64,000 nucleotides of DNA from a virus (IMGVR_UViG_3300044620_001243), one strand, 5' to 3'. Counted from the first letter of the stretch, positions 8,527 to 63,047 are shown. The notes: a model not told the origin generated them from the sequence alone. Translations and numbers: made by a program.

Positions 8527-9099
8527 ATGAGTTTAACAAATTACGCAAAAAAAGAATTACAGACCGCCGGTTTCTTTGATGAAGATTCCGATTACGGGGG
8601 TTTAATTGGAGAGGCTGTAATGGAACTTATTGAAGTGTTCGATAAACAAGGACACTCGGGTATGTCTGCTCCTTATGTTGCTTCAATCTTTAACAAACTT
8701 GCCAACTTTGAACCTTTACTACCTATTACAGGTAAAGATGAAGAATGGGGAGATGTTAAGGATTTGGAAAGTGGAAAACCTTGGTATCAAAACAGGAGAT
8801 GTTCTGCTTTATTTAAAGATGGGAAGGATGGAAAACCCTACTTCATACACGCAATTATTAAAAGAGACCAAAATGGGAGTTGTTGGAGTGGAATGGCGTG
8901 GTTAAATGAAGAAGATTACAAATCAGGCGATAGAAGTAAAATGGTTGGAAAGAAGGGGTATGTTAAATCATTTCCTTTTGTTCCTAAAACATTTTACATT
9001 GATGTTAAGGATGTTGAGGTAGGAAAAGATGATTGGGAATCATTTGTTGTCGACCCATCACAATTGGAAGAGGTGTGGGAGTATTATGATAAGGATTAA
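8527..9099 (+). CDS. hypothetical protein
   Basis: 190 aa ORF; no motif recognised. Confidence 0.55.
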   Translation: MSLTNYAKKELQTAGFFDEDSDYGGLIGEAVMELIEVFDKQGHSGMSAPYVASIFNKLANFEPLLPITGKDEEWGDVKDLESGKPWYQNRRCSALFKDGKDGKPYFIHAIIKRDQNGSCWSGMAWLNEEDYKSGDRSKMVGKKGYVKSFPFVPKTFYIDVKDVEVGKDDWESFVVDPSQLEEVWEYYDKD

Positions 9100-27684: not shown

Positions 27685-27876
27685 ATGACATCAGAAGAAA
27701 TGTATGAATATTACGGTTGGATGGCGTATCGCCATGGTTTTTTTAATGAATGGAGAAATGAAGTAACCAAAGAAATTAAACAAAACATAAAAGAACATGA
27801 ATTTTCCACAAAAAAAGCGGAAATTTCTGAAATCGTTTTTAGTAAAATATTATCAATTAAAAACATAAACGAATGA
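27685..27876 (+). CDS. hypothetical protein
   Basis: 63 aa ORF. Confidence 0.4.
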   Translation: MTSEEMYEYYGWMAYRHGFFNEWRNEVTKEIKQNIKEHEFSTKKAEISEIVFSKILSIKNINE

Positions 27877-28574
27877 AAGTAGAATCGTTGTTTTTATCTG
27901 ACATTCATTTGGGTTCAAAAGGTTCCAATTCAGATTTAGTTCTTAAAATATTAAAAAAATATGAACCCGAATATCTTTTTTTAGTTGGGGATATTATAGA
28001 CGGTTGGTTATTGAAAAGAAGATTTAGGTGGAAACAATCTGATACAAATGTTATAAGAAAAATTCTTTCATATTCAAAAAATGGAACAAAGGTAATTTAC
28101 ATAACTGGTAATCATGATGATTTTTTAAGAGAATATGGTGATTTAAATTTTGGTAATATTGAAATTTGTTTAGAATATAAATATAAAAATATTTTTATAA
28201 CCCATGGTGATTTATATGATGGAGTTATAAAATTAAAATGGTTGGGCGTGTTAGGTTCTTTTGGATACGATTTAGCAATTTCAATCGATAGATTTTTAAA
28301 AAAAATTGGATATAAACGTTCATTGTCTAAATTCTTAAAAGATAAAGTAAAAGAGGCGGTAAAATTTATAACCAGTTTTGAAAATGAATTAGTTAGACAA
28401 GCGAAAAAAAGAGAGTGTGATGTGGTGATTTGTGGACACATTCACAACCCCGAAGATAAAACAATTAATAATGTTCGTTATTTAAATTGTGGGGATTGGA
28501 TTGAAAACAACACATACATTACTTTTGATAAAAATATATTCAAAATTAATTATATTAAAAATGAAATACCTTAA
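27873..28574 (+). CDS. LpxH-like metallophosphoesterase (UDP-2,3-diacylglucosamine hydrolase family)
   Basis: FLSDIHLG, GDIIDGW, TGNHD, THGD, CGHIH motif series. Confidence 0.65.
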   Translation: MKVESLFLSDIHLGSKGSNSDLVLKILKKYEPEYLFLVGDIIDGWLLKRRFRWKQSDTNVIRKILSYSKNGTKVIYITGNHDDFLREYGDLNFGNIEICLEYKYKNIFITHGDLYDGVIKLKWLGVLGSFGYDLAISIDRFLKKIGYKRSLSKFLKDKVKEAVKFITSFENELVRQAKKRECDVVICGHIHNPEDKTINNVRYLNCGDWIENNTYITFDKNIFKINYIKNEIP

Positions 28575-31877: not shown

Positions 31878-32075
31878 TTGGGTAAAAATGGAAGTTATAG
31901 TATTTATAACCCCAATGAAGTAGATGAAAGTTGTAGGGTTGCTTTTGACTTGATACAGGTTATTAGACATGAATTTTGGAAAAACGAACCAAACAGAAGT
32001 AGCATAACTGTCGATTCATCAGTACATTTGAGAACAAAGGAATCAGGTAAAATTAAATGTAAAATAGATGTCTAA
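31878..32075 (+). CDS. hypothetical protein (TTG start, or read-through extension of 31146-31817)
   Basis: Frame is open from 31818; no ATG start available. Confidence 0.3.
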   Translation: MGKNGSYSIYNPNEVDESCRVAFDLIQVIRHEFWKNEPNRSSITVDSSVHLRTKESGKIKCKIDV

Positions 32076-33363
32076 ATACAAACCCATAGGGATTACACCC
32101 AAAGAAAAAGCAGACCAGTTGTTAGAATCTGTTATGTTTAGTCTAAATAAACAATTTGACCCAAACACAGGTGAATATCAACCAATCCCAACCAACCCGC
32201 ATTATAAAGAATGCGCATTAGCAATTGTAAACGAAATCTTTGAGTTTATTAAAAAAGATGATTTAGATTCCGAAACGGCGTATTGGGCAAATCATCCTAT
32301 TTCTAATTTTTGGGTTGAAGTTGAACGTGAAATTAAAAAACAAATGAATTTGATTCAAATTTTAGAGAATTATTTTCAAAAAGGTTGGTTGATTAAACAA
32401 ACTCACCCAACTTTACCTCTGACAATTTGGAATTATTCCCAAACAACCCAATACGAGGGTAGGTGGGATGAAATAACCCTCATGTGTAGAGGTTTGGTTA
32501 CAGATGATGATGGAAATATTGTTGCCAGACCTTTCAAGAAGTTTTTCAATTTAGAAGAGGGAAAACACACACCAACCTCAGAATTCGAAGTATATGAAAA
32601 GATGGATGGTTCTTTGGGTATTTTCTTTTATTATCAGGAGCAACCCGTTTTTGCATCCAGAGGTTCTTTCACTTCCGACCAAGCCATCAAAGGAAGAACT
32701 CTTTTAGATAAGTATAATTGGCAAGGTGGAACTTACCCTGGCTACACTTACCTATTTGAGATTCTTTACCCGGAAAATCGGATAGTAGTAAATTACGGTG
32801 ATTTAGAAGAACTGGTTGTTTTGGGTGTGCTCAATACCCAAACTGGAGAAGAGTGTGATTTTTCAGAAATGAAAAACGAAGGATTCGTTCTAGTTAAAAA
32901 ATACGATGGAGTTAAAGACTATACCAAATTAAAGAGTATGATTTTTAACAATCAAGAAGGGTTTGTTGTAAAGTTTTCAAACGGAAATAGGGTAAAAATC
33001 AAAGGAGAAGAATACTTGCGTCTTCATAAGATTATGACTGAAGTTTCGACTAAATCTGTTTGGGAGATTTTATCCAATGGTGATAATATGGAAGAGATAC
33101 TCAGAGATGTTCCTGATGAATTTTTTGATAAGGTCAAGGAATATGAAACAGAACTTGTTTCTAAATTTGATGATATAAAGAATGAATACACTTGGATTTA
33201 TAAAGTTTTAGAAAGAAACGAGGAAATTTCAGAAAATAGAGCTATCTTTGCCCAATACGCTAAAAGATACAAACACCCATCCATTTTATTTGGTCTATTG
33301 GACGGTAAAAATATAGACCCTATGATTTGGAAAATAATACAACCCGAATATAAAAAACTATGA
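32068..33363 (+). CDS. rnlA: RNA ligase, T4 RnlA (Rnl1) family, with about 92-aa N-terminal extension
   Basis: CRGLV...IVARPFKKFFN, adenylylation motif I YEKMDGSL (T4: KEDGSL), SRGSFTSDQA, FEILYPENRIVVNY, EGFVVKF..G.RVKIKGEEYLRLH all parallel T4 Rnl1 as recalled. Confidence 0.85.
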   Translation: MSKYKPIGITPKEKADQLLESVMFSLNKQFDPNTGEYQPIPTNPHYKECALAIVNEIFEFIKKDDLDSETAYWANHPISNFWVEVEREIKKQMNLIQILENYFQKGWLIKQTHPTLPLTIWNYSQTTQYEGRWDEITLMCRGLVTDDDGNIVARPFKKFFNLEEGKHTPTSEFEVYEKMDGSLGIFFYYQEQPVFASRGSFTSDQAIKGRTLLDKYNWQGGTYPGYTYLFEILYPENRIVVNYGDLEELVVLGVLNTQTGEECDFSEMKNEGFVLVKKYDGVKDYTKLKSMIFNNQEGFVVKFSNGNRVKIKGEEYLRLHKIMTEVSTKSVWEILSNGDNMEEILRDVPDEFFDKVKEYETELVSKFDDIKNEYTWIYKVLERNEEISENRAIFAQYAKRYKHPSILFGLLDGKNIDPMIWKIIQPEYKKL

Positions 33364-34725: not shown

Positions 34726-35382
34726 ATGAAACTAATTTTAGAAAAAGACCAAAGATTATTTTTTACTAGTGATACCCACTACAATCACTCTAATATTTGT
34801 AGGGCAACTACAAAATGGGAGGACAGTTATGATGCCACTCGTGATTTTAAATCTTTAAGTCACATGAACGACAGTATTGTTCAGAATATTAATGATTTGG
34901 TAAAAGAAAATGATGTTTTAATCCACATGGGAGATTGGTCATGGGGTGGATTTGAATATATTGAAGAATTTCGAAAAAGGATTGTTTGTAAAAACGTTCA
35001 CTTAGTTTTTGGAAACCATGATGAACATATTAAAAAAAATACAGAAAACATTCAAGATATATTCACATCAACTCATGATTATTTACATTTGGATGTTAGA
35101 CAACCTTCCTCAACCAACAAAGGGTCAGTAAATAAGTTTGAATTTATTTGTATGCACTATCCTATTGCTAGTTGGGATGGTTTGTACCACGGTACAATTC
35201 ATTTACATGGTCACACACATCTAACTCCTAACTCTAGAATTTCACAAGGAAAAGCAATGGATGTTGGTGTAGATGGTAACGAGTATAAACCTTTACTTAT
35301 GCAAGAGATTATTGTTATCATGGGAAATAGAGAAATAAATCACCTTTGTTTACCAAAAGACCGTAACGAAAAAAGAATTTGA
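34726..35382 (+). CDS. calcineurin-like metallophosphoesterase
   Basis: SDTHYNH, MGDWSWG, FGNHDEH, MHYP, LHGHTH motif series. Confidence 0.75.
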   Translation: MKLILEKDQRLFFTSDTHYNHSNICRATTKWEDSYDATRDFKSLSHMNDSIVQNINDLVKENDVLIHMGDWSWGGFEYIEEFRKRIVCKNVHLVFGNHDEHIKKNTENIQDIFTSTHDYLHLDVRQPSSTNKGSVNKFEFICMHYPIASWDGLYHGTIHLHGHTHLTPNSRISQGKAMDVGVDGNEYKPLLMQEIIVIMGNREINHLCLPKDRNEKRI

Positions 35383-39550: not shown

Positions 39551-39576
39551 GGGAAGAATTGTCTTCCCTTTTTTTT
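39551..39576 (+). terminator. rho-independent terminator
   Basis: GGGAAGA-ATTG-TCTTCCC followed by TTTTTTTT, 25 nt after the SPFH stop. Confidence 0.65.
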
Positions 39577-39601
39577 GTTTGGTATTTTAAAATTTATTTC
39601 G

Positions 39602-39609
39602 TATATTTA
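39602..39609 (+). promoter_or_regulatory. -7 box TATATTTA
   Basis: Directly after terminator 39551-39576 and 4 nt before ATG 39614. Confidence 0.4.
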
Positions 39610-39613
39610 CACT

Positions 39614-40333
39614 ATGAAAACCGTATTCATCGGCGATATTCACGGACGTTCCATTTGGAAAGAAATTGTAGAACAGGAAAAACCTGATAGGGTTATTTTT
39701 GTCGGAGACTATTTCGACTCACTTGATATTCCAGGTATTGACCAAATTCATAATTTTAAAGAAATCATTCACCACAAAAAAACAAGTGGAATTGAGGTTG
39801 TACTGTTGGTAGGTAATCACGATTATCATTATATGGATATGGGTGAAACTTACAGTGGATTTCAACCTGCTCTAAAATTTGATATTGGGCAGTTACTCAA
39901 AGAAAATATGGAACATTTACAAATGGCACATTCATTTGATAATTTCCTTTGCACCCACGCTGGTGTATCTTCGGTGTTTATGAATGATAATTTTAGAGAT
40001 AGTTGGGATTGCGATAATTTAGTTGAAAAACTGAATGAAACATTTAAATATTCTCCATTCATTTTTAAGTTCAATGGTTTTAATCCATATGGGGATAATG
40101 AAACACAATCACCTATTTGGATTAGGTTGAATTCATTGAGAAGTTCAAATAACAAACGAGGTAAAGATGGAATTAAAAAGCAATTTATTCAAGTGTTTGG
40201 ACACACCCAAGTTAAAGAAATTGATTTGGTTGGAATGGCGAAATTTTTAGGTGGTAGATATATTATGATTGATGCTTTACCATCCCGTCAATACCTAATT
40301 TACAATGGAGAAATTAAAGTAGGAAAAGTGTAA
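39614..40333 (+). CDS. Ser/Thr phosphatase-type metallophosphoesterase
   Basis: VFIGDIHGR, VGDYFD, VGNHD, THAG, GHT motifs; start moved to ATG 39614 downstream of promoter. Confidence 0.7.
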   Translation: MKTVFIGDIHGRSIWKEIVEQEKPDRVIFVGDYFDSLDIPGIDQIHNFKEIIHHKKTSGIEVVLLVGNHDYHYMDMGETYSGFQPALKFDIGQLLKENMEHLQMAHSFDNFLCTHAGVSSVFMNDNFRDSWDCDNLVEKLNETFKYSPFIFKFNGFNPYGDNETQSPIWIRLNSLRSSNNKRGKDGIKKQFIQVFGHTQVKEIDLVGMAKFLGGRYIMIDALPSRQYLIYNGEIKVGKV

Positions 40334-41586: not shown

Positions 41587-41725
41587 AGTCAGATGGCGAA
41601 ATGTAGCCGCTATTTGGGTAAAACAGTTTAACACGAGACGCGAACCTCACACAAAGCCTGATAATAACCAAATGAAAGTGCGAAGTACAGTAACACTTAT
41701 ACGGGTTCGACTCCCGTTCTGACTG
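41587..41725 (+). ncRNA. tRNA-Leu-like shell RNA 1 (divergent copy)
   Basis: AGTCAGA-TG-GCGAAATGTAGCCGC ... ACGGG-TTCGACT-CCCGT-TCTGACT-G; 90-nt insert with ATTTGG/CCAAAT stem around 51 nt, plus AAGTG/CACTT arm. Confidence 0.55.
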
Positions 41726-41737
41726 CGAGCCAGAGAT

Positions 41738-44439: not shown

Positions 44440-44604
44440 ATGCAACCAAAAGAATCAAAAACAAATACCCATTTTCAATTAAGTTTGATAAAATCTCTTT
44501 TAAGGATATTAGGATGTATTTATCTATTCTTTGGGTGTACAAGTATGTTTGTAATTATTTTCATATTTGCAGAAATTCTTGGAATTTTAGAAGAAATTTT
44601 GTAG
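44440..44604 (+). CDS. small membrane protein
   Basis: 54 aa from ATG 44440; C-terminal TM helices. Confidence 0.35.
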   Translation: MQPKESKTNTHFQLSLIKSLLRILGCIYLFFGCTSMFVIIFIFAEILGILEEIL

Positions 44605-44628
44605 TTTGAATTTTTTTTCGTATATTTG
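44598..44628 (+). promoter_or_regulatory. Bacteroidota-type promoter at the head of the RNA array
   Basis: TTTG, 19 nt, TATATTTG; tRNA-Met starts at 44654. Confidence 0.55.
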
Positions 44629-44653
44629 TATTCTGAATATGAAAATAAACAAT

Positions 44654-44727
44654 AGCGGGGTGGTGGCAGATGGTAGCCCGCCAGGCTCATAACCTGGAGG
44701 TCGTAGGTTCGAGTCCTACCCCCGCAA
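44654..44727 (+). tRNA. tRNA-Met (CAU), initiator-like
   Basis: Hand-folded cloverleaf colinear with E. coli tRNA-fMet (AGCGGGG..CCAGG-CTCATAA-CCTGG-AGGTC-GTAGG-TTCGAGT-CCTAC-CCCCGCA-A); A1/A72 mismatch; one bulged U in the D stem; starts about 25 nt after the -7 box at 44621-44628. Confidence 0.75.
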
Positions 44728-44791
44728 CCGTATAGTTTTTGTTCTTTGACATCTTGGGAATTAAAAGTAAAAGTCGAGAGACTTAAAAATT

Positions 44792-44901
44792 AGTCAGGTG
44801 GCGGAATTGGTAGACGCAAGTGAGAATAGTAATTGCGCTGATGTAGCGGCAGATGCAGTAAGTTATTATTCATACAGGTTCGAGTCCTGTCCTGACTACC
44901 A
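44792..44901 (+). ncRNA. tRNA-Leu-like shell RNA 2
   Basis: Consensus ends (AGTCAGGTGGCGGAATTGGTAGACGC ... ACAGGTTCGAGTCCTGTCCTGACTACCA); 56-nt insert forms a rod GAATAGTAA/TTATTATTC + TTGC/GCAG + GCTG/CGGC; no 5-7-5 anticodon arm. Confidence 0.6.
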
Positions 44902-45008
44902 AAGAAACAAGTAAAACGCAAACGCACAGTCCCTTGATGCATCAGGTGAGGCGCACACTGTATACTGGATGACCTCTGTTTCTTTTTTAATCAGTCAGGT
45001 GGCGGAAT
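44871..45008 (+). repeat. 138-bp exact duplication, copy 1 (T arm + acceptor + spacer + next 5' half)
   Basis: Identical by eye to 45339-45476. Confidence 0.8.
44902..44992 (+). ncRNA. structured 91-nt spacer RNA candidate (copy 1 of 2)
   Basis: AAAGAAACA (from 44901, sharing the terminal A of the preceding CCA)/TGTTTCTTT 9-bp closing stem, internal ACAGT/ACTGT and GAGG/CCTC pairings, palindrome TGATGCATCA; identical copy at 45370-45460. Confidence 0.3.
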
Positions 45009-45101
45009 TGGATAGACGCATTGAGGAATCTAAACTTGGTAGCATTTGTTAGATTTAATAGTAATCCTCCTTCCTTACAGGTTCGACTCCTGTCCTGACT
45101 A
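44993..45101 (+). ncRNA. tRNA-Leu-like shell RNA 3
   Basis: Consensus ends; 57-nt insert with GAGGA/TCCTC and ATCTAA/TTAGAT stems. Confidence 0.6.
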
Positions 45102-45267
45102 CGACAGTTAGCAGATAATACTTGGTAGTTCTTGTAACGTCTGACTATGCGTGAGGTGGTTTTATAACTTTCCACCAGCTGGTCCAAAACTAAAAGTTAA
45201 TACAGGTTTAATAACGGGGTGAAGGAAAGTCTAACTAACAAGTACTTCACTACCTACTGTAAAAATT

Positions 45268-45369
45268 AGTCAGGTGACGAAATTGGTAGACGTGCCACGA
45301 ATAAAACTAAGTGGTGGAGAAACAGCTTTCAGGCACTCCATACAGGTTCGAGTCCTGTCCTGACTACCA
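45268..45369 (+). ncRNA. tRNA-Leu-like shell RNA 4
   Basis: Ends AGTCAGGTGACGAAATTGGTAGACGT ... CCTGACTACCA; 48-nt insert with CCAC/GTGG and GGAG/CTCC hairpins. Confidence 0.6.
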
Positions 45370-45476
45370 AAGAAACAAGTAAAACGCAAACGCACAGTCC
45401 CTTGATGCATCAGGTGAGGCGCACACTGTATACTGGATGACCTCTGTTTCTTTTTTAATCAGTCAGGTGGCGGAAT
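45339..45476 (+). repeat. 138-bp exact duplication, copy 2
   Basis: Identical by eye to 44871-45008; offset 468 bp. Confidence 0.8.
45370..45460 (+). ncRNA. structured 91-nt spacer RNA candidate (copy 2 of 2)
   Basis: Identical to 44902-44992. Confidence 0.3.
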
Positions 45477-45558
45477 GGTAGACGCACTGGACAGGCGATG
45501 CATTTAAAACAGAAATAAGCCCAGTCGGTACTTACAGGTTCGAATCCTGTCCTGACTA
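45461..45558 (+). ncRNA. tRNA-Leu-like shell RNA 5
   Basis: Consensus ends; 48-nt insert with ACTGG/CCAGT + GGC/GCC around a 22-nt loop. Confidence 0.6.
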
Positions 45559-45926
45559 CAAATCTTAGGAGTAATTAACCTAAGACTGAGAGGTTCGAAA
45601 CTCTCGATTGGCTATGGTGTAATGGGCACAGAGAAACGGAGTACGAAAGGGGTTACGGGAATTTTCCCGCAAACATCAGAAACGGGACTCAGGATTATGG
45701 TTCGAATCCATATTAGTCAACAAGCCGTCTTTTTTTCTTGTCCGCCGTGGACGTGGATTGTTGAGACGTAAAAGTAACAATCGATTGATTAGAGAACGGT
45801 AGGATACAGGTTCACTAGACGAAGGTAGAAGTTTTTTTTTGATAGATGGGTTTGAGTTCTTTATAACAACAAACCAACTATAATTCAGTAGGGACAAATG
45901 GGAGCGGCTTACTCCAGTCCCGAAAT

Positions 45927-46085
45927 AGTCAGGTGGCGGAATTGGTAGACGCTATGAAATCATGTTTTAAGATTGAACGGGTAGGCAGACGTAACATATA
46001 GGTAAAAGAGTGTTATCGCCGAATACACTTATAAGGGTCCTATGAAAAAACTTCAATCATACAGGTTCAAGTCCTGTCCTGACTA
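45927..46085 (+). ncRNA. tRNA-Leu-like shell RNA 6 (largest insert)
   Basis: Consensus ends (T loop TTCAAGT); 108-nt insert with GATTGAA/TTCAATC closing stem and nested helices. Confidence 0.55.
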
Positions 46086-46328
46086 CACGTTCCGAAACAG
46101 ACAACGGATAGTTCCACTATGAACGATGAGAAACAGGGTGATGTCCTGTATTAGTTATCGCCTCCCGAATGCGGTCGGGATAGGTTGACCACCTAAACAT
46201 CAGCAATGTGAACGGTCTATTTCTAACTCACCTACGTTTGTAAGACAACATAGAAGTGACGAGACGGGAAACTCGTCGTGAGGACATCCAAGACACCTGT
46301 AAGTTGGATAAATTAGGGTGTTATTTTT

Positions 46329-46451
46329 AGTCAGGTGTGGGTAAAAATGCGCTAACTGGAAACCCACTGAAAGCGAAAGCAAAGTCGAGGTCTAAATGCG
46401 CACTATGGCCGAGGTAATGGCGAGATACAGGTTCAAGTCCTGTCCTGACTA
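46329..46451 (+). ncRNA. tRNA-Leu-like shell RNA 7 (D arm replaced)
   Basis: AGTCAGG-TG, then GTGGGT/ACCCAC hairpin instead of the D arm, GC-GAAA-GC hairpin, consensus T arm and CCTGACT-A. Confidence 0.5.
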
Positions 46452-46596
46452 CAAAGACAATGGTTTTCCCCATTCAACGGATGTCGACAATCCAGAATGG
46501 AATCGGAATTCAGCACCCTCAGCCGAGGCGCCTCGTAAAACTACGATTAAGCTGTTAAGATTGGAGCGAGACGGGTACTCCATCATTGTCTTATTT

Positions 46597-46668
46597 GGTC
46601 GGTTCATCTAGAGGTTAGGATACAAGATTTTCATTCTTGTCACATGGGTTCGATTCCCATACCGACTA
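46597..46668 (+). tRNA. tRNA-Glu (UUC)
   Basis: GGTCGGT/ACCGACT acceptor, D arm ATCT-AGAGGTTA-GGAT, anticodon arm CAAGA-TTTTCAT-TCTTG, T arm ATGGG-TTCGATT-CCCAT, A73. Confidence 0.85.
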
Positions 46669-46843
46669 CCTTGGAGGTATAGGGGTAAACCCTTGAGGCG
46701 AAGTACAAGCCATAGTCACTGAACTTAAACTGACCTCCAACCAAATTAGAAGTGTCGCAATACGCGTTTCAATCTAATTGATAGACGTATCAATGAAGAT
46801 GTTCGAGGGTGAAAATCCCAAGCTTCTAATCCTCCATTCTTAG

Positions 46844-46938
46844 TGTTATGTGGTTAAAACACGTTAACTCTTACATCGCCTGATTAGCGCTAATCCGAAT
46901 GTAAGACGAGTAAGTTGGTTCGAATCCAACAGAATGGA
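46844..46938 (+). ncRNA. tRNA-like RNA of a second lineage with rod-like anticodon arm
   Basis: Acceptor CCATTCT/AGAATGG (7 bp), D arm GTGT-TATGTGGTTAAA-ACAC, T arm GTTGG-TTCGAAT-CCAAC, A73; 50-nt rod TTACAT/ATGTAA + palindrome GATTAGCGCTAATC. Confidence 0.55.
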
Positions 46939-47216
46939 CAATGAGTAAGAGATACTCAGAGTCTTTGGTCTAAGACTTAAACAATAGACTCGCAGAATGT
47001 CTACGGCGTGAGTGGGACATCATGGGAACAAAGAAGAGTCACACACCTTCTCCCAGTAGTGTTGACAGGTTTTTATGTGGTAAGACACTAATGAAAAAGA
47101 CTCGTTCTATGGGGTACTTATCTGGAGTATCAAACAAGTGTGAGTGATATGGTTCTCGAACAGACAGAGAAACCCGTTAAAATCTACCCGTCTGGAATCT
47201 CAGGATGGGGAAACAT

Positions 47217-47319
47217 AGTCAGGTGGCGGAGTGGGCTAACGCTAACTTGGAAGAGTCTGAGGAGTGGTAACCAAGTACCTATACTCTGATGACCGCAGGT
47301 TCGAATCCTGTCCTGACTA
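47217..47319 (+). ncRNA. tRNA-Leu-like shell RNA 8
   Basis: AGTCAGG-TG-GCGGAGTGGGCTAACGC ... GCAGG-TTCGAAT-CCTGT-CCTGACT-A; 52-nt insert with ACTTGG/CCAAGT stem; loop AGAGT complementary to downstream ACTCT. Confidence 0.6.
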
Positions 47320-47337
47320 CAAAAATAAATTAAAATT

Positions 47338-47598
47338 ATGTTTATAGAAAGATTTTTTAACCCCTATGTGTCATCTCACGAAAGGGTATTATATGAGAAT
47401 AAAGAAGCAATTGAACATTGTTTGAAATATCATACATGGATTAGACATTATTCATTTGAAGGTGATGAATATATCAAAAATGTTAATGGTAAATTAGTTT
47501 GGAATGATGGTAGTAAAGTTGATAAAAGAAAATTACCTAAAAAAGGAAAAGGATGGGGCAGATATTCAAGTGAACTTTATAATTTGTGTTCTTTTTAA
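47338..47598 (+). CDS. hypothetical protein (cassette between tRNA-like elements)
   Basis: 86 aa ORF starting 18 nt after element 47217-47319 and ending 7 nt before element 47606. Confidence 0.5.
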   Translation: MFIERFFNPYVSSHERVLYENKEAIEHCLKYHTWIRHYSFEGDEYIKNVNGKLVWNDGSKVDKRKLPKKGKGWGRYSSELYNLCSF

Positions 47599-47605
47599 AT
47601 TAAAT

Positions 47606-47751
47606 AGTCAGGTGGCGGAATTGGTTAGACGCTGTAAAAGTAAGATATGGGAATTGTGCACTCGGTAAACCTACGCACAAGGCTTAGATAGTTGTGCAAC
47701 AGCGGAAAGTCTTACAAAACTATCTTACAGGTTCGAATCCTGTCCTGACTG
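47606..47751 (+). ncRNA. tRNA-Leu-like shell RNA 9
   Basis: Consensus ends (G73); 94-nt insert with AAGATA/TATCTT and TTGTGC/GCACAA stems. Confidence 0.55.
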
Positions 47752-47764
47752 CAAAATTAAAGAT

Positions 47765-47908
47765 ATGTTTAGAACATTAAATTATATTTGGAAATTGTTT
47801 TGGAAAAGACCTAGTAGAAGAGTATTTTTTATATTTTTTAGAATGCTAAAAACGGAAATTAAGTGTTTAATGTTGACTGGATACTCAACAGATGAATTAC
47901 TAAATTAG
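47765..47908 (+). CDS. hypothetical small protein (cassette between tRNA-like elements)
   Basis: 47-codon ORF found by eye; its TAG stop overlaps the first 2 nt of element 47907. Confidence 0.3.
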   Translation: MFRTLNYIWKLFWKRPSRRVFFIFFRMLKTEIKCLMLTGYSTDELLN

Positions 47909-48033
47909 TCAGGTGGCGGAATTGGTAGACGCACGATTTATTGTTTAACGATGTGGCTCAATGTCCTAATGGATGAGAGAAAATAAACAGAGAAATATAC
48001 CACATACAGGTTCGAATCCTGTCCTGACTACCA
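47907..48033 (+). ncRNA. tRNA-Leu-like shell RNA 10
   Basis: Consensus ends with encoded CCA; 73-nt insert with crossing complementarities TTTATT/AATAAA and ATGTGG/CCACAT. Confidence 0.6.
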
Positions 48034-48085
48034 AGTTAACCCACTAAGACTAGAAACGGGTGACACCTCGGAAAGACGAGGACAT

Positions 48086-48170
48086 AGTCAGGTGGCGGAA
48101 TGGATAGACGCGGCCCTATCAGGGGTAGAGGCGAAAGAAACTCATACAGGTTCGAATCCTGTCCTGACTA
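48086..48170 (+). ncRNA. tRNA-Leu-like shell RNA 11 (tRNA-sized, non-canonical anticodon loop)
   Basis: 85 nt; best arm CCCTA-TCAGGGG-TAGAG has a C/A mismatch and C at position 33; looks like a damaged Leu(CAG) loop. Confidence 0.5.
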
Positions 48171-48278
48171 CACAGTGTTGGCTTCAAGGACCTATTAGGG
48201 AAGTACACTTAAATAAAACAAGAACGGGGAAAACACCGAATCTGCAGATAACGGCGAAGTACCAACGAAAGGTGAAAC

Positions 48279-48352
48279 GACCTCATAGCTTAATTGGTAA
48301 AGCACCTGGCTTTTAACCAGGGGAGTCCAGAGTTCGAGTCTCGGTGGGGTCA
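48279..48352 (+). tRNA. tRNA-Lys (UUU)
   Basis: GACCTCA/TGGGGTC acceptor, D arm GCTT-AATTGGTA-AAGC, anticodon arm CCTGG-CTTTTAA-CCAGG, T loop TTCGAGT, A73. Confidence 0.8.
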
Positions 48353-48517
48353 CAAAGGTTGATTGGGGAATGATGGTGACAAAGACTTGAGAGTTTATGC
48401 CGGTCGTTACCATCGGAGTTGGGAGGTATAAACCTAAGCAATGCCAATCGTAAAAGGAGTTGTCCACTCGACCATCTTCTCCTTTCCTTTTTTTTAAAAA
48501 AATTCTTAAAGACACAT

Positions 48518-53524: not shown

Positions 53525-54256
53525 ATGGATAAAGATAAATTAAAAAATATCATTACCAGAATTGGTCAAATAAATCCAAAATATGAATTGGAAAATATTC
53601 TGCCTCAATCGCCAAAATTAATTAAATTAATGCCTAAATTAATTCAACTCATGGGTGACCCATTAGAAGATGCTCAATTGGCTGCAGTTAAAAAAGATGG
53701 TTTAACAATCGAATATATCGTTAAAGGTGGAATCACCCCATCAGAAGATGTTCAATTGGCTGCAGTTAACGAAAATGGTTATGCAATCCAATATATCATT
53801 AATGGTGGAATCGTCCCATCAGAAGGTGTTCAATTGGCTGCAGTTAACAAAAAGGGTTATGCAATCTCAAATATCATTAAAGGTGGAATCGTCCCATCAG
53901 AAGATGTTCAATTGGCCGCAGTTAACGAAGAGGGTTATGCAATAGGATATATCATTGATGGTGGAATCGTCCCATCAGAAGGTGTTCAATTGGCCGCAGT
54001 TAATAATAATGGTTATGCAATCCAACATATCATTAATGGTGGAATCGTTCCATCAGAAGGTGTTCAATTGGCCGCAGTTAACAAAAAGGGTTTATCAATC
54101 GAATATATCATTGATGCCGGAATCATTCCATCAGAAGATGTTCAATTTGGAGCAGTTAATTATAATGGTTTATCAATCCAATATATCATTGATGCTGGAA
54201 TCACCCCATCAGAACGTGTAAAAGAACTTGCTCGTTCCAAGGGTGTTCAAATATAA
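53525..54256 (+). CDS. DUF4116-like repeat protein, paralog 1 of 3
   Basis: Seven roughly 30-aa repeats GGI.PSEDVQLAAVN.NGYAIQYII; shared N- and C-termini with the next two genes. Confidence 0.6.
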   Translation: MDKDKLKNIITRIGQINPKYELENILPQSPKLIKLMPKLIQLMGDPLEDAQLAAVKKDGLTIEYIVKGGITPSEDVQLAAVNENGYAIQYIINGGIVPSEGVQLAAVNKKGYAISNIIKGGIVPSEDVQLAAVNEEGYAIGYIIDGGIVPSEGVQLAAVNNNGYAIQHIINGGIVPSEGVQLAAVNKKGLSIEYIIDAGIIPSEDVQFGAVNYNGLSIQYIIDAGITPSERVKELARSKGVQI

Positions 54257-54261
54257 ATAAC

Positions 54262-54897
54262 ATGGATAAAGATAAATTAAAAAATATCATTACCAGAATT
54301 GGTCAAATAAATCCAAAATATGAATTGGAAAATATTCTGCCCCAATCACCAAAATTAATTCAATTCATGGATAATCCATCAGAAGATGTTCAATTGGCCG
54401 CAGTTAAAAAAGATGGTTTAACAATCTATTATATCATTGAAGCCGGAATCGTCCCATCTGAAGATGTTCAATTGGCTGCAGTTAATAATAATGGTTCATC
54501 AATCTATCAAATCATATATGATGCTGGAATCACCCCATCAGAAGATGTTCAATTGGTTGCAGTTAAAAAAGTGGGCGACTTAATCTATGATATCATTAAA
54601 GTCGGAATAACCCCATCAGAAGATGTTCAATTGGCTGCGGTTAATAATAATGGTTCATCAATAGGATATATCATTAACGGTGGAATCACCCCATCAGAAG
54701 ATGTTCAATTGGCCGCTGCTAATCAAAATGGTAGGGTAATCCAATATATCATTAAAGCTGGAATCACCCCATCAGAAGATGTTCAATTGGCCGCAGTTAA
54801 TAATAATGGTTATGCAATCCAACATATCATTAACGCCCGAATCACCCCATCAGAACGTGTAAAAGAACTTGCTCGTTCCAAGGGTGTTAATATATAA
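54262..54897 (+). CDS. DUF4116-like repeat protein, paralog 2 of 3
   Basis: Same architecture; N-terminus MDKDKLKNIITRIGQINPKYELENI identical. Confidence 0.6.
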   Translation: MDKDKLKNIITRIGQINPKYELENILPQSPKLIQFMDNPSEDVQLAAVKKDGLTIYYIIEAGIVPSEDVQLAAVNNNGSSIYQIIYDAGITPSEDVQLVAVKKVGDLIYDIIKVGITPSEDVQLAAVNNNGSSIGYIINGGITPSEDVQLAAANQNGRVIQYIIKAGITPSEDVQLAAVNNNGYAIQHIINARITPSERVKELARSKGVNI

Positions 54898-54902
54898 GTT
54901 AT

Positions 54903-55616
54903 ATGGATAAAGATAAATTAAAAAATATCATTACCAGAATTGGTCAAATAAATCCAAAATATGAATTGGAAAATATTGTGCAGCAAGCGCCACAATTAAT
55001 TCAATTCATGGATAATCCATCTGAAGAAATTCAATTGGCCGCGGTTGAAAAAGATGGTAAATATATAAAAAATATTATTGAAAGTGGAATCAAACCATCA
55101 GAAGATGTTCAATGGACAGCTGTTAATCAAGGTGGTCAGTCACTTTATTTTATCCTTGAAGCCGGAATCGTCCCATCTGAAGATGTTCAGTTGGCAGCGG
55201 TTAGAAGTAGAGGTTCGGCAATCCAATTTATCATTGAAGCTGGAATCATTCCATCAGAAGATGTTCAATGGTTTGCGGTTAACGAAAATGGTTATGTAAT
55301 CCAAGATATCATTGATGCCGGAATCACCCCATCAGAACGTGTTCAATTGGCCACAGTTAATTATAATGGTTTGTTAATCAAATATATCATTGATGTCGGA
55401 ATCACCCCATCAGAACGTGTTCAATTGGCTGCTGTTAATCAAAATGGTTTGTCAATCAAAGATATCATTGAAGCCGGAATCGTCCCATCTGAAGATGTTC
55501 AGTTGACTGCAGTTAGAAGTAGAGGTTCGGCAATCCAATTTATCATTTATAATGGTGGAATCAAACCATCAGAACGTGTAAAAGAACTTGCTCGTTCCAA
55601 GGGTATTAATATATAA
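54903..55616 (+). CDS. DUF4116-like repeat protein, paralog 3 of 3
   Basis: Same architecture; C-terminus PSERVKELARSKG.NI shared. Confidence 0.6.
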   Translation: MDKDKLKNIITRIGQINPKYELENIVQQAPQLIQFMDNPSEEIQLAAVEKDGKYIKNIIESGIKPSEDVQWTAVNQGGQSLYFILEAGIVPSEDVQLAAVRSRGSAIQFIIEAGIIPSEDVQWFAVNENGYVIQDIIDAGITPSERVQLATVNYNGLLIKYIIDVGITPSERVQLAAVNQNGLSIKDIIEAGIVPSEDVQLTAVRSRGSAIQFIIYNGGIKPSERVKELARSKGINI

Positions 55617-55621
55617 ATAAC

Positions 55622-56194
55622 ATGGAAAAAAATCTAAATGAAGAGATTTCAAGAATAAAATCAATAATCAATTTTATGAATGAAAATGAATTGCCCAAAA
55701 ATTCTGGAGACTTAATAAGGATGTTACCTGAAAAGTTAAAAGAATTATTTTTCAATCAATGGAAAGCAAAACAAAACCCAAAATGGCACCCCGAAGGTAA
55801 CACATTGAAACATATTCTTGTTGTAATTAAAAGGGCTTATCATTATTATCCTGATGACCCCAATATGATTATGGCGGCGTTGTTTCATGATTTGGGGAAA
55901 ATTGATACATACAACATTAACCCAAAAACGGGGGAACCAACTGCGTATGGTCATGAGAACAAGTCAGTGCAATATGTGGAAGAATTCAAAGATTGGATTC
56001 AGAGTTTTGAGGGAACGAACGTGGAAGAGATTAAATATTTGGTTAAAAACCATATGAAGGTAAAACCATCCACATGGGACTCAATGAGGGATATTAAGAA
56101 AGAACCGATACAATCACACCCCGCATTTGATAAATTAATGGGTTTTACAAGTAAATTGGATGGTGGGGGGATTAATTTGGAAAAAAATATTTAA
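55622..56194 (+). CDS. HD-domain phosphohydrolase (CCA-enzyme HD-domain-like)
   Basis: NPKWHPEGNTLKH and LFHDLGK (H...HD) resemble the HD domain of bacterial CCA-adding enzymes. Confidence 0.6.
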   Translation: MEKNLNEEISRIKSIINFMNENELPKNSGDLIRMLPEKLKELFFNQWKAKQNPKWHPEGNTLKHILVVIKRAYHYYPDDPNMIMAALFHDLGKIDTYNINPKTGEPTAYGHENKSVQYVEEFKDWIQSFEGTNVEEIKYLVKNHMKVKPSTWDSMRDIKKEPIQSHPAFDKLMGFTSKLDGGGINLEKNI

Positions 56195-56830: not shown

Positions 56831-57448
56831 ATGCAAAAAGTTATTTTCTTGGATATTGATGGGGTAATGAACTCACATATTTTCTATGAACAAAGGCATA
56901 GAAAAAGATGGTTGAAATGGAGAACTTATTATTTTTTGATTAGAAGATTTTTGGGGATTAAATCCAAATCCGTGAGTCTTGCTAACCACAAAACACCCAA
57001 ATCCCATTGCACATACCAACACCAATTTAAAAGATTAAAAGAAGAGACTTGTCAGCAAAAATGGAAATGGCTTGCTAATTTCTGCAACGAGACTGGAACT
57101 AAAATTTGTGTATCATCTGTGTGGAGATTTCATTTTGGAAATGAAGAATCGGTTATACCCCTGTGGTGGGAACGAGCACTGATTGATTTGGGTTTCAACG
57201 AAGGAACATTTGTTGGTATCACCGACAGATTGGGAATGAGAGGAGAAGAAATCAAGGATTGGCTTCAAAAAAATCAGGAAGTTCAGGAATATGCAATTTT
57301 AGATGATGACTCTGATATGCTACCTGAACAGATGGATAAATTTTATCATTGTGATGGATATTTTGGTCTTTCTCCCAATCACTTATATCGTATCCAAAGA
57401 GCCTTCTCGGGTAAAAGTAAATATGGACATTTGAATAAAACCGTATAA
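56831..57448 (+). CDS. HAD-like phosphatase (recalls the HAD domains of 'Swiss-army-knife' RNA-repair proteins)
   Basis: VIFLDIDGVMNS motif I; ILDDDSD motif near the C-terminus. Confidence 0.45.
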   Translation: MQKVIFLDIDGVMNSHIFYEQRHRKRWLKWRTYYFLIRRFLGIKSKSVSLANHKTPKSHCTYQHQFKRLKEETCQQKWKWLANFCNETGTKICVSSVWRFHFGNEESVIPLWWERALIDLGFNEGTFVGITDRLGMRGEEIKDWLQKNQEVQEYAILDDDSDMLPEQMDKFYHCDGYFGLSPNHLYRIQRAFSGKSKYGHLNKTV

Positions 57449-61264: not shown

Positions 61265-61405
61265 ATGAAAAATAAGTTAAAAACAATTTGGCATGATTTT
61301 TGGACTGACCCCCTATACTACATTGTAATTATGTCGTATATTGGTTTGCTTTTAATTATGTTAATAGTTAGTGTGGCTTGGTTTATCCAACCTTTAATAA
61401 AATAA
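61265..61405 (+). CDS. hypothetical small membrane protein (cassette)
   Basis: 46-codon ORF found by eye; same leader; stop 6 nt before the tRNA-Leu at 61412. Confidence 0.35.
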   Translation: MKNKLKTIWHDFWTDPLYYIVIMSYIGLLLIMLIVSVAWFIQPLIK

Positions 61406-61411
61406 CAAAAC

Positions 61412-61501
61412 AGTCAGGTGGTGGAATTGGTTAGACCGTCCCCTCCCTTAAGTGGAAGGGGGAGACCGAAAGGTATACAGGTTCGAATCCTGTCCTGACT
61501 A
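61412..61501 (+). tRNA. tRNA-Leu (UAA), type II; the most intact member of the AGTCAGG shell family
   Basis: Family acceptor and T arms; anticodon arm CCTCC-CTTAAGT-GGAAG (one C/A mismatch; U33, UAA, G37); variable arm ACC-GAAA-GGT. Confidence 0.5.
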
Positions 61502-61518
61502 CTAAAAATTAAAGAATT

Positions 61519-61680
61519 ATGAAAATAAAAGTACACTTATTAAGTCAATCTAAACCGATTGAATATGAGGATGTGAAAAACGCATACACAAAAAGCGGTT
61601 TGTATTGTGTCTATCTAAAAAACAATCAAGTACACAAATACCCTTTGTGTAATGTATTTAGAATTGAAGAAGATTATTAA
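61519..61680 (+). CDS. hypothetical small protein (cassette)
   Basis: 53-codon ORF found by eye between elements 61412-61501 and 61686-61768. Confidence 0.35.
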   Translation: MKIKVHLLSQSKPIEYEDVKNAYTKSGLYCVYLKNNQVHKYPLCNVFRIEEDY

Positions 61681-61685
61681 AACAT

Positions 61686-61768
61686 AGTCAGGTGGCGAAA
61701 TTGGATAGACGCTAGGGAAACCTTCCCGAGAATGAAAGTTCATATAGGTTCGAGTCCTGTCCTGACAA
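61686..61768 (+). ncRNA. tRNA-Leu-like shell RNA 13 (tRNA-sized)
   Basis: 83 nt; A1/A72 mismatch (CCTGACA); centre folds as GGGAA-ACC-TTCCC, not a 7-nt anticodon loop. Confidence 0.5.
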
Positions 61769-61784
61769 CTAAAAATTAAAGAAT

Positions 61785-61967
61785 ATGGAATGGGTTGAAA
61801 TTAAAAATGGAAAACCAAAAGATGGTAGTTGGGTACTAATTCAAAGTTCTTTGAAGAACGTACCGAAATATGAGGTTTGCTATTATGAAAATGATGAATG
61901 GTACATACCTTCGTATAATGATGTATGTGAAGAGAAACATATTATTAAATGGTCGTACATTGAATAA
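61785..61967 (+). CDS. hypothetical protein (cassette)
   Basis: 60 aa ORF between elements 61686 and 61974. Confidence 0.45.
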   Translation: MEWVEIKNGKPKDGSWVLIQSSLKNVPKYEVCYYENDEWYIPSYNDVCEEKHIIKWSYIE

Positions 61968-61973
61968 TCAAAC

Positions 61974-62096
61974 AGTCAGGTGGCGGAATTGGTAGACGTA
62001 TAGAGTAGGGAGTAGCACTCCATTTATGGTAAGGCAAGCAAATAAGACCTAACCCTCTAAGGTAGCACCATACAGGTTCGAATCCTGTCCTGACTA
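61974..62096 (+). ncRNA. tRNA-Leu-like shell RNA 14
   Basis: Consensus ends; 72-nt insert with TAGAG/CTCTA closing stem and GGAG-TAGCA-CTCC hairpin. Confidence 0.6.
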
Positions 62097-62115
62097 CAAA
62101 CAAACAAAAAAAAAT

Positions 62116-62322
62116 ATGAGTCAATTTATCAACACAAATCACGCAAACGAAGCGGCAAGAGAAGCCTTTCAGGGTTATAGGAAAGACACAGAAAGAATCA
62201 AACAAATCAGACAGATGTTACAGAATGGTGAATCTGTTAGCAATGAAGATATTCTTTGGTTGTGTCAAAGAGCTCAATCAGGCATACTACAAGAAGAATC
62301 AAGTTGGTATGACCACGGATAA
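62116..62322 (+). CDS. hypothetical protein (cassette)
   Basis: 68 aa ORF between elements 61974 and 62329. Confidence 0.45.
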   Translation: MSQFINTNHANEAAREAFQGYRKDTERIKQIRQMLQNGESVSNEDILWLCQRAQSGILQEESSWYDHG

Positions 62323-62328
62323 AAATAT

Positions 62329-62435
62329 AGTCAGGTGGCGGAATTGGTAGACGCAATAAGGCATGGAAACATGCGCATCATGACGGATTGGTGATATTAG
62401 CCAAAGTTATACAGGTTCGAATCCTGTCCTGACTA
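62329..62435 (+). ncRNA. tRNA-Leu-like shell RNA 15
   Basis: Consensus ends; 56-nt insert with ATAA/TTAT closing stem, GCATG-GAAA-CATGC (GNRA tetraloop) and TTGG/CCAA hairpins. Confidence 0.6.
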
Positions 62436-62454
62436 CAATAAAAAAACAAAACAA

Positions 62455-62943
62455 ATGAAACTAAATCAAAACTCACTCTCGGCAAAACTCTATCGTTGGT
62501 TCTATAAAACCGACACAATGCCAACCAACCTATGTCCTTACTTTTGGAAACTGGTCACTGCGGTGATTCTTTCACCTTTGCTTGCAATTCACACCCTACC
62601 CTATGAAATCATCAACTACAAACGTCAGCGTTGGGATACATACAGTGATATGCTCGGAATATCGCTTGTTTGTTGGTGCCTTATCGCTGTTGTTATTTGC
62701 ATGATTTCATCATTGGGTCTTTTCTTTTACATCCCTGATAAGGGTTCATCACTTTGGACAATGATGTCAATCGGTCTTATTTGTTGGGGTACCCTTATCC
62801 TAGTTGGCATTACTTGGGCTATTACTAAAACAGTAGTATACTTAAAATCAAAGAAGAGTGATAATGAAAAGACAGACAACATCATCGTTGAAATGGTGAA
62901 AGCAAAGTATCACAAATACTGCCCTAAAATTGATTGGAAGTAA
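62455..62943 (+). CDS. membrane protein (cassette)
   Basis: 162 aa with about 4 TM helices, between elements 62329 and 62951. Confidence 0.55.
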   Translation: MKLNQNSLSAKLYRWFYKTDTMPTNLCPYFWKLVTAVILSPLLAIHTLPYEIINYKRQRWDTYSDMLGISLVCWCLIAVVICMISSLGLFFYIPDKGSSLWTMMSIGLICWGTLILVGITWAITKTVVYLKSKKSDNEKTDNIIVEMVKAKYHKYCPKIDWK

Positions 62944-62950
62944 AACAAAT

Positions 62951-63028
62951 AGTCAGGTGGCGGAATGGTAACGCAGCTCGCGGTGTACACAAAGGGGTGA
63001 ATTGCAGGTTCGAATCCTGTCCTGACTA
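62951..63028 (+). ncRNA. tRNA-Leu-like shell RNA 16 (shortest)
   Basis: 78 nt; 29-nt centre tested at every register for a 5-7-5 arm, none found. Confidence 0.5.
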
Positions 63029-63047
63029 CAATAAAAAAACAAAACAA

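Follow-up and report, generated by a model that had tools for sequence, protein, structure and literature searches.

Three structured RNA modules between two tRNA-like repeats of a phage tRNA array

The locus and its surroundings

The DNA analyzed here, a stretch of 64,000 nucleotides from a virus (IMGVR_UViG_3300044620_001243) that is called the window in its entirety, is part of a large phage-like genome in which the + strand carries nearly all open reading frames (ORFs). Its genes include those for a thymidylate synthase, a Tad3 anti-Thoeris protein and a helicase, as well as genes of the RNA-repair type (an Rnl1-type RNA ligase, a HAD_SAK_2 or HAD "Swiss Army Knife" domain, an HD domain and phosphoesterases). 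Two RNA-gene islands, at about 44650-48360 and about 61400-63030, contain a few canonical tRNAs together with 15 copies of a repeat, here called the shell. The shell has a tRNA-Leu-like body (AGTCAGG-TG-GCGGAATTGGTAGACGC ... ACAGGTTCGAATCCTGT-CCTGACT-A), and each copy carries a different insert in its anticodon region. The stretch studied comprises the 368 nt between the shell ending at 45558 and the shell starting at 45927. It is neither spacer nor a graveyard of shell copies but three abutting + strand RNA modules, A (45559-45608), B (45609-45720) and C (45721-45926), all of them on the tRNA strand and flush against tRNA-like borders. No sigma-70-type promoter and no intrinsic terminator (GC-rich hairpin followed by a T run) were predicted within 45559-45926, and no Bacteroidota-type TAnnTTTG box was found there; near the array start, the only such box (-7) lies at 44621.

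The initial annotation, made from the sequence of the window, had described this stretch as hairpin-dense and free of credible ORFs. The helices that it listed are all in the sequence where it had placed them, and only two short ORFs overlap the stretch, one of 49 aa (+) and one of 73 aa (-). It is comparison with relatives that bears out the structure; folding energy does not establish a density of hairpins beyond chance, the minimum free energy (MFE) z-score of the whole stretch being -0.32, and only module A stands out. The further suggestion of uncharacterised structured RNAs within the array is supported, since all of the modules recur, with compensatory base changes, in further viral contigs, and the covariation with homologues is strong in A and B and present in C.

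Search for relatives and distribution

A match to a known Rfam family, which had been considered as an explanation of the region, did not emerge: Rfam 15 gave none at the gathering score and at E up to 10, whether the query was the window, the array or only the stretch. The sole Rfam result in the stretch is a sub-threshold SpF41 sRNA (16.8 vs 52 bits), which rests on the T arm and GGAGUA. The GenBank phages (INPHARED, 50,697 records) contained no match in near or distant search modes, nor any match to a 74-nt A-B consensus at E up to 1. Scanning of IMG/VR with the 3' end of the shell yielded at least 120 contigs, and local BLAST of the stretch against these shell-bearing contigs recovered L012 as a nearly full-length homologue (88%) and five further contigs with partial matches, in which similarity ends at position ~165 or ~72 of the stretch. 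When homologues were placed side by side, a two-part unit (A+B) with evident compensatory changes became apparent. Three IMG/VR pattern scans, built from different parts of this unit, then gave at least 98 distinct A+B sequences: the A-B junction pattern matched 80 loci with one match apiece, the A pattern 118 stretches and the B pattern 96 stretches.

The A+B unit is present in more than 100 IMG/VR viral contigs, mostly once per contig, and one contig has two A-B copies (L166 and L216). Every A copy is followed by B (98 distinct A+B sequences), and A lies upstream of B in 61/61 genuine B copies recovered with the B-only pattern, so that the linkage of the two modules is obligate. Both keep 68-89% identity in contigs that differ elsewhere. 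Among bacterial and archaeal representative genomes (185,579 species), 26 pattern matches were obtained, of which the covariance model accepted one as a real A copy, carried by a 1.5-kb MAG contig (L243); the A-B pair is thus essentially viral. Module C is conserved in a narrower set of contigs than A and B. As far as the libraries searched show, the three RNA families are undescribed.

Module A, a two-hairpin RNA with palindromic loops

Module A (45559-45608, + strand) is a 50-nt two-hairpin RNA, recognized by covariance model, covariation and MFE z-score. Its first base adjoins the discriminator of the tRNA-like gene upstream, its last is position -1 of B, and CAAA separates that discriminator from the first hairpin of A whichever tRNA lies upstream. 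The covariance model of A (R1) gives 78.2 bits and E 1.4e-15 on the module, the E-values of home-made models being rough, and detects no second copy of A elsewhere in the window. In 64 distinct homologues, pairing extends to 94.8% of cells, and 10/12 pairs show double-sided changes, with a covariation score of 0.654 compared with 0.216 for shuffles (0/500 reach it), a control that ignores phylogeny in pair counts, and with at most 0.157 for slid partners, which corrects for phylogeny. G-U is found in 7/64, and the MFE z-score of the module is -3.0.

The first hairpin (45563-45585, + strand) is formed by TCTTAGG (45563-69) and CCTAAGA (45579-85) around the 9-nt loop AGTAATTAA, and shows double-sided changes in 7/7 pairs. 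Its loop core, TAATTA, is palindromic and hardly varies, being kept in about 95 of 102 distinct copies. After a YUG separator comes the second hairpin (45588-45605, + strand), with GAGAG (45588-92) and CTCTC (45601-05) enclosing the 8-nt loop GTTCGAAA (G-TTCGAA-A) and double-sided changes in 3/5 pairs. The core of this loop is TTCGAA in 95/102 distinct copies; its variants TTGCAA (three copies), TTATAA (two) and TTCTAGAA (one) are all palindromes and occur in different stem backgrounds, and a further entry, AAACAT, was judged to be a parser artefact. The core has stayed palindromic through at least four independent double changes. Identification of hairpin 2 as a T-loop was rejected, since TTGCAA, TTATAA and TTCTAGAA break the T-loop consensus. 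A role as partner of B's T-loop was also rejected, because the variants do not track that loop, which stays TTCGAAT in the phages in which hairpin 2 varies.

The variants being palindromic and off the T-loop consensus, the loop of hairpin 2 is selected for self-complementarity, and the simplest reading of the palindromic cores would be a loop-loop (kissing) pairing between two A copies. HIV-1 DIS is a kissing-loop dimerisation hairpin. A self-complementary core kept in evolution, by which such hairpins are recognized, is found in hairpin 2 of A, and the likeness extends to a 6-nt self-complementary core flanked by purines within a loop of 8-9 nt (G-UUCGAA-A, A-UUCGAA-G), although the context of module A is unrelated to that of HIV-1 DIS. 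Two other candidate contacts were dropped, namely pairing of the hairpin 1 loop with B's D-loop, for which no covariation was seen by eye, and a stem AAATC/GATT closing the module, of which the junction length and sequence vary. The junction between A and B is short, about 3-6 nt (variants GAT, GG, GGAA, GGAAA, GCT and GAA), and because it varies in length, A is not closed by a terminal stem.

Module B, a tRNA-like body with a replaced anticodon arm

Module B (45609-45720, + strand) is a 112-nt tRNA-like RNA, supported by covariation. It has an acceptor stem (TGGCTA 45609-14 with TAGTCA 45714-19), a D arm containing GG (GTGT 45617-20 with GCAC 45626-29, loop AATGG), a T arm with a TTCRA loop (45696-45712; TATGG 45696-700, loop TTCGAAT, CCATA 45708-12) and a discriminator base, A45720, all on the + strand. 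Counted over 64 distinct shells of the module, 96.1% of cells are paired and seven pairs change on both sides, with a covariation score of 0.241 vs 0.104 for shuffles (0/500). The acceptor stem consists of six pairs and a U-U/U-C mismatch at 7-66, and its compensatory versions include TGATTA/TAATCA, TGACTA/TAGTCA, TGAATA/TATTCA and TGTTCA/TGAGCA. G-U occurs in 17/64 at pair 3-70; since frequent G-U pairs on the + strand would be A-C mismatches on its complement, pairing is specific to one strand and takes place at the RNA level. The module is not unusually stable (MFE z -0.85), and the base at -1 is usually U. In the initial annotation, TTAGTCA (45713-19) had been paired with TGACTA of the upstream shell. 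Its true partner is TGGCTA at 45609-14, the 5' strand of B's own acceptor, and this pairing persists in most contigs, where the upstream gene is an unrelated tRNA. Of the two T-arm-like hairpins that had been taken for orphans, one is the T arm of a complete tRNA-like body, and the other is hairpin 2 of A, which is no T-loop.

The pairs U1-A72 (62/64) and G2-C71 (64/64), with G or A at 73, are reminiscent of tRNA-Gln. Among the homologues, L124 is a canonical tRNA-Gln(UUG), and in T4 the B model matches tRNA-Gln best. The Rfam tRNA model RF00005 (gathering 29 bits) has no match at 45609-45721, nor at E up to 10; the neighbouring shells do match it. ARAGORN finds the B copy of the window only when introns are allowed and the threshold is relaxed. 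The covariance model of B with its insert masked (R2) cannot span the insert, which leads to poor scores on full B copies.

In the place of the anticodon arm, B of the window has 63 nt (45630-45692, + strand), delimited with the help of class I homologues. Class I is the largest B class, with 31 distinct sequences including the window, and is laid out as a closing stem of 2-3 bp, purine strands GAACGGAGUA and GAAAGGGGA, and between these a hairpin of unrelated sequence. In the window, the closing stem is GAG 45631-33 with CTC 45688-90, the conserved purine strands are AAACGGAGTA (45634-43) and GAAACGGGA (45679-87), and a hairpin CGGGA 45656-60 / TCCCG 45665-69 lies within the lineage-specific part (all + strand). 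Closing stems in the class include GAG/CTC, GCA/CGC and GTA/AAC, and the flanks are GAACGGAGTA in 22/31 and GAAAGGGGA in 20/31. The loop E or bulged-G motif is marked by AGUA facing GAA beside a helix. This sequence arrangement of loop E and the sarcin-ricin loop, AGTA followed by a hairpin and GAA, is found in the 31 distinct class I sequences, and the purine internal loop of class I is therefore probably loop-E-like. A K-turn reading of the same loop was dropped as a misfit to the consensus by inspection, as was a window-specific mimic of the sarcin-ricin loop (AGUACGAAAGG), since homologues place that segment within the variable insert.

In every B homologue other than L124, the anticodon arm has been lost; 18-95 nt of varied sequence stand in its place, and the inserts of other phages consist of a long G+C stem, of a short GUAAUU loop, or of an insert with an internal T-arm-like hairpin. 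Such complete differences between phage lineages argue against one conserved cargo function and would fit a scaffold-only role or fast-evolving functions. B inserts were not found in other scaffolds outside a B context, and the idea of a modular "cargo" shared between scaffolds was dropped, being without direct support.

Module C, a pseudoknotted RNA

Module C (45721-45926, + strand) is an RNA of about 205 nt, defined by an nhmmer profile and covariation. It starts with CAAG after B's discriminator and ends 1 or 5 nt before the next shell. Among the fetched loci and the window, the profile identified 18 copies, which fall into two subtypes and three more divergent forms; the comparisons below are based on about 13 distinct sequences from related phages. 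Five contigs retain the module with 98% conservation; in L129, where a shell and not B precedes it, the figure is 85%. Its MFE z-score (-0.86) is not unusual.

The 5' part of C (45726-45782, + strand) contains two helices, S1 (CGTCTT 45726-31 with GAGACG 45763-68) and S2 (GATTGT 45756-61 with ACAATC 45777-82), both on the + strand, and the 3' strand of S1 lies inside the S2 loop, as in an H-type pseudoknot. S1 is invariant, with 6/6 pairs in 12/12 distinct sequences. S2 has 6/6 pairs in 11/12 and at least four versions (ATTGTT/AACAAT, ACTGTT/AACAGT, AAGCTT/AAGCTT and ACTTTA/TAAAGT). MAFFT misaligns S2 and the central helices between subtypes, so S1 and S2 were counted by script instead. Loop 1 of the pseudoknot is U-rich and carries a variable hairpin with compensatory changes, and loop 3 is A-rich. 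The features of known pseudoknot riboswitches were not found in the stretch. A central helix, GGGTTTG/CAAACC vs GAGTTT/AAACTC, was recognized by eye. The 3' hairpin (45891-45921, + strand) pairs GGGAC (45891-95) with GTCCC (45917-21) and has an internal loop, an inner helix GGAG/CTCC and the loop CGGCTTA. In 10 distinct sequences, 93.9% of its cells are paired and 5/10 pairs change on both sides, with a covariation score of 0.302 vs 0.120 for shuffles (0/500).

Proposed processing and alternative readings

Taken together, A, B and C are probably functional RNA genes of the phage tRNA array that are released from one long + strand precursor by host tRNA-processing enzymes. Their co-transcription with the array, and cleavage at the tRNA-like borders, are suggested by the way in which the modules are arranged in the sequence. 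By tRNA punctuation, the array transcript would be cut at each tRNA-like body: RNase P would act at the 5' ends of B and of the following shell, and an activity that trims tRNA 3' ends would cut behind every discriminator base. Three separate, stable RNAs would result, A of 50 nt, B of 112 nt and C of ~205 nt. B retains the parts needed for processing and stability, namely the acceptor stem, the D/T elbow and the U1-A72 and G2-C71 pairs, as in tRNA-Gln. It has lost a decoding anticodon arm and carries in this lineage a loop-E-like purine loop and a hairpin instead, most plausibly as a protein-binding surface. A is both the obligate partner of B and its 5' leader, with self-complementary loop cores that suggest kissing between two copies, and C is a separate pseudoknotted RNA.

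A less likely, though possible, arrangement is that A and B form one unprocessed RNA, in which A, by way of its palindromic kissing loops, serves as a dimerisation or docking domain joining two B bodies or controlling B maturation. The obligate linkage and the short junction agree with such a unit, and so do the palindromic state of the hairpin 2 core through its independent double changes and the likewise palindromic TAATTA core of hairpin 1. However, the length of the junction is not conserved, the dimerisation is itself putative, and B has a normal acceptor stem and usually U at -1, a combination that makes a good RNase P substrate. Release of A and B as separate RNAs is favored.

B could also be seen as a tRNA-Gln with a Lak-type intron that is removed via the phage RNA ligase to give a decoding tRNA, but this appears quite unlikely. 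Oversized phage tRNAs with inserts have been described in Lak phages and may be common in large phages (10.1101/356790); moreover, the L124 homologue is a canonical tRNA-Gln(UUG), and the window encodes an Rnl1-type ligase. Against this reading, the B orthologues do not share a 5-bp anticodon stem and 7-nt loop with a common anticodon. ARAGORN called 10/98 B copies, with seven different anticodons, and 22/85 when introns were allowed, with 17 different anticodons on what are orthologous genes. In class I, the flanks standing in the place of an anticodon stem (GAAC/GGGA) cannot form 5 bp, and removal of the insert restores no anticodon stem-loop. B has lost a consistent anticodon, and since 22 calls give 17 anticodons and the flanks are unable to form the stem, it is regarded as neither a decoding nor an intron-containing tRNA. 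No group I intron and no other Rfam match was found, nor a splicing endonuclease in the window, where a Sen15 Pfam match at 54262-54897 was rejected as an artefact of DUF4116 repeats.

Action of the palindromes as DNA, whether in binding a dimeric protein, in recombination or replication, or as a target for homing, is somewhat less probable still. Both A hairpins are near-perfect inverted repeats with palindromic centres, and the element is usually single-copy per genome, as might be expected of such a site. Yet the stems vary freely while staying complementary, unlike a sequence-specific site, many G-U pairs are found and on the + strand only, and the element always shares the strand of the tRNAs, directly adjoining the 3' end of a tRNA on one side and B on the other.

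That the stretch is non-functional, either untranscribed spacer or decayed shell remnants as the initial annotation had offered as one of two possibilities, is very improbable. T-loop-like words (GGTTCGAA and ACAGGTTCA) are present, and nhmmer with the shell 3' profile gives three matches. These matches, which had passed for eroded shell pieces, are only 9-11 nt T-loop-like words, and the 5' half of the shell is absent; neither its 5' motif AGTCAGGTGGCGGAATTGGTAGACGC nor its 3' motif CAGGTTCRANTCCTGTCCTGACTA has a match inside 45559-45926 with up to 3 mismatches. The word ACAGGTTCA, present near 45805-13 in the central part of C, belongs to a segment that is conserved in one C subtype and absent from the other. 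The similar decayed pieces seen at 45139-45230 fare no better: the region 45103-45267 is kept in the homologue L005, whose flanks are retained without CTGACTA or ACAGGTTT. A graveyard of shell copies is further contradicted by the strong covariation and by the conservation of A and B at 68-89% in otherwise different contigs, and of C in its narrower set. Finally, a small protein, encoded by the 73-aa - strand ORF (45676-45897) or the 49-aa + strand ORF (45622-45771), can practically be dismissed: the - strand frame is open over most of C in several homologues, but it is broken in L129, L193 and L240, begins at a TTG codon and extends into the conserved T arm of B, and substitutions are fewest at the third codon position (10/7/6 and 16/13/8 by codon position).

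Comparison with known systems

RNAs linked to tRNAs or tRNA-like structures include those of mitochondrial tRNA punctuation, the tRNA-miRNA units of murine gammaherpesvirus 68, MALAT1-mascRNA and the 3'ETS-leuZ of Escherichia coli. The likeness to the phage modules lies in non-tRNA RNAs placed flush against tRNA-like structures, of which RNase P and RNase Z would set the ends. These are other systems, however, and none of them has the sequences or folds of A, B or C. A tRNA scaffold confers processing and stability, and recombinant "tRNA scaffold" RNAs were reportedly described by Ponchon and Dardel in 2007. Non-decoding tRNA mimics are known from the tRNA-like domain of tmRNA, from YrlA and from the tRNA-Other of Bacillus cereus. 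Like the scaffolds and mimics, B has kept its acceptor, D and T parts, while another RNA domain has taken the place of the anticodon arm. It is distinct from tmRNA, which ARAGORN does not find in the window and whose G3-U70 pair is present in only 17/64 B homologues, and from YrlA (RF02553), which has no match in the stretch and in which the 5' and 3' ends form a Ro-binding stem, the ends of B lying at the acceptor stem. Elsewhere in the window, the YrlA model has a weak 18.5-bit match at 45047-45149.

The closest analogues appear to be found in T4 and in the Lak megaphages. In the T4 tRNA cluster, two stable RNAs of unknown role, RNAC and RNAD (species 1 and 2), are transcribed (PMC3014915, PMC9697503). 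They are small non-tRNA RNAs of 139 and 119 nt at the end of the phage tRNA cluster, on the tRNA strand, and the position and strand of the stretch studied here, as read from sequence alone, match theirs. The 3' end of RNAC has a T arm, CCGGG-TTCGAAT-CCCGG, and an acceptor-like strand. Neither sequence nor model similarity was detected between the two systems, however, when R1 and R2 were run on T4 68000-76000: R1 gave nothing at rnaC or rnaD and no A copy, and R2 gave at rnaC only a weak match to the T-loop region (14.5 bits, E 0.13). A leader resembling A and a pseudoknotted RNA resembling C are both absent from T4.

Lak megaphages and other large phages carry pseudo-tRNAs and oversized "tRNAs with enigmatic introns", the latter with conserved inserts in the anticodon region, which were read as spliceable introns in tRNAs of defined anticodon (Devoto et al., 10.1101/356790). 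By this description, they share with the present case large phages of Bacteroidota-type hosts and tRNA-shaped genes with anticodon-region inserts, and some Lak inserts, like some B inserts, contain a tRNA-like hairpin. In B, unlike the Lak tRNAs, neither an anticodon stem-loop nor a consistent anticodon can be recovered, and a group I intron core was not detected, its 63-nt insert having no Rfam intron match. The stretch is thus of a known kind, extra structured RNAs of a phage tRNA cluster, and consists of three families that are new as far as the libraries show.

Possible functions and significance

The idea that the RNAs act as decoys or cofactors when phage and host are in conflict over tRNA can be put forward only tentatively. 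It is attractive because of the RNA-repair genes of the window and because of a tRNA body that has shed decoding. A more specific proposal, and at best an equally speculative one, is that A, B and C might be a phage RNA toolkit directed against host tRNA machinery or tRNA-targeting defences, with B and the shells as scaffolds of decoys or inhibitors and A as a dimerising leader. The targets of B and the shells could then be anticodon nucleases, tRNA-modifying enzymes or glutamine-tRNA enzymes, to which fast-evolving non-anticodon domains would be displayed. If this were true, the RNAs would represent a new class of counter-defence RNAs, widespread in large environmental phages.

Extra stable RNAs in phage tRNA clusters have been known for 50 years, since T4 RNAC and RNAD, and their role is still unknown. 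The stretch adds three sharply defined families of this neglected kind, backed by covariation and with many natural variants to guide experiments. In the A-B pair, a tRNA body that gave up decoding is joined by a leader with self-complementary loops, and both are open to experimental test. The neighbouring RNA-repair genes may link A, B and C to phage-host conflict over tRNA. The three families are candidates for new Rfam entries, which would stop their annotation as empty sequence or as pseudo-tRNAs.

Shell copies and the pair G3-U70

Fifteen copies of the shell, a tRNA-Leu-like repeat unit whose anticodon-region insert differs from copy to copy, are found in the RNA islands of the window (44792-48170 and 61412-63028). 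A scan of IMG/VR detected the 24-nt 3' end of the shell in at least 120 contigs (loci L001-L120), and shells form a viral family of their own with a wide distribution. Among the matches listed, ARAGORN made no tRNA call for 123 of the 163 shell copies, and the anticodons assigned to the remaining copies were scattered. The shell looks like a second tRNA-like scaffold, composed of a Leu-like body and a hypervariable anticodon region.

B (45609-45720, + strand), a tRNA-like RNA with an insert in place of the anticodon arm, carries G3-U70, the alanine identity pair. In a comparison that takes in the 706-727 region of locus L124, 17 of 64 B shells, that of the window among them, carry this pair, and most carry A3-U70; G3-U70 is probably incidental. 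In loci L026, L154, L198, L204 and L217, the insert of B has a T-arm-like hairpin (CAGGGTTCGAGTCCCTG) within it, which recalls the "intron that encodes a possible tRNA" of Lak phages. The window also holds two oversized tRNA-like genes with different bodies (46834-46939 and 41587-41726), both detected only by intron-aware ARAGORN, the former additionally giving a weak Rfam match in antisense.

Other candidate RNA elements

Shells 1 and 3 are each followed by a copy of an element of ~90 nt, and the two copies (44899-44990 and 45367-45458) seem to be identical; the closing stem of the element is long-range (AAAGAAACA / TGTTTCTTT), and it looks like a further structured RNA of the array of tRNA and tRNA-like genes. 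The inter-shell segment 45103-45267 is ~82% conserved in locus L005 (5326-5507), its GGTGG/CCACC hairpin being among the parts kept, and is probably another RNA module; CTGACTA and ACAGGTTT, read as decayed shell pieces in the initial annotation, are not conserved there. An element beginning GGTTTTCCCCATTCAACGGATGTCGACAATCC (46455-46596) also follows B in L056, L164, L210 and L212; it occurs in several contigs, each time directly 3' of a tRNA-like gene, and is a candidate for a further conserved RNA.

Gene context and host

The RNA islands are surrounded by RNA-repair-like genes, encoding a T4 Rnl1-type RNA ligase (32068-33363), an HD domain (55622-56194), a HAD domain of the type found in "Swiss Army Knife" RNA repair proteins (56831-57448) and three calcineurin-like phosphoesterases (27873-28574, 34726-35382 and 39575-40333). 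The same genome carries a counter-defence gene, a homologue of the type I Thoeris inhibitor Tad3 (8527-9099; E 6e-38). Tandem paralogues built of DUF4116 repeats (ITPSEDVQLAAV...) lie at 53525-55616; these repeats yield many false Pfam matches, that to Sen15 among them.

A Bacteroidota-type promoter -7 box, TAtaTTTG (within 44600-44630), lies ~25 nt upstream of the tRNA-Met that opens the array. In locus L122, where the two-hairpin RNA A is the first element, a similar AT-rich TAnnTTTG-like sequence precedes A. These sequences hint at a Bacteroidota host.
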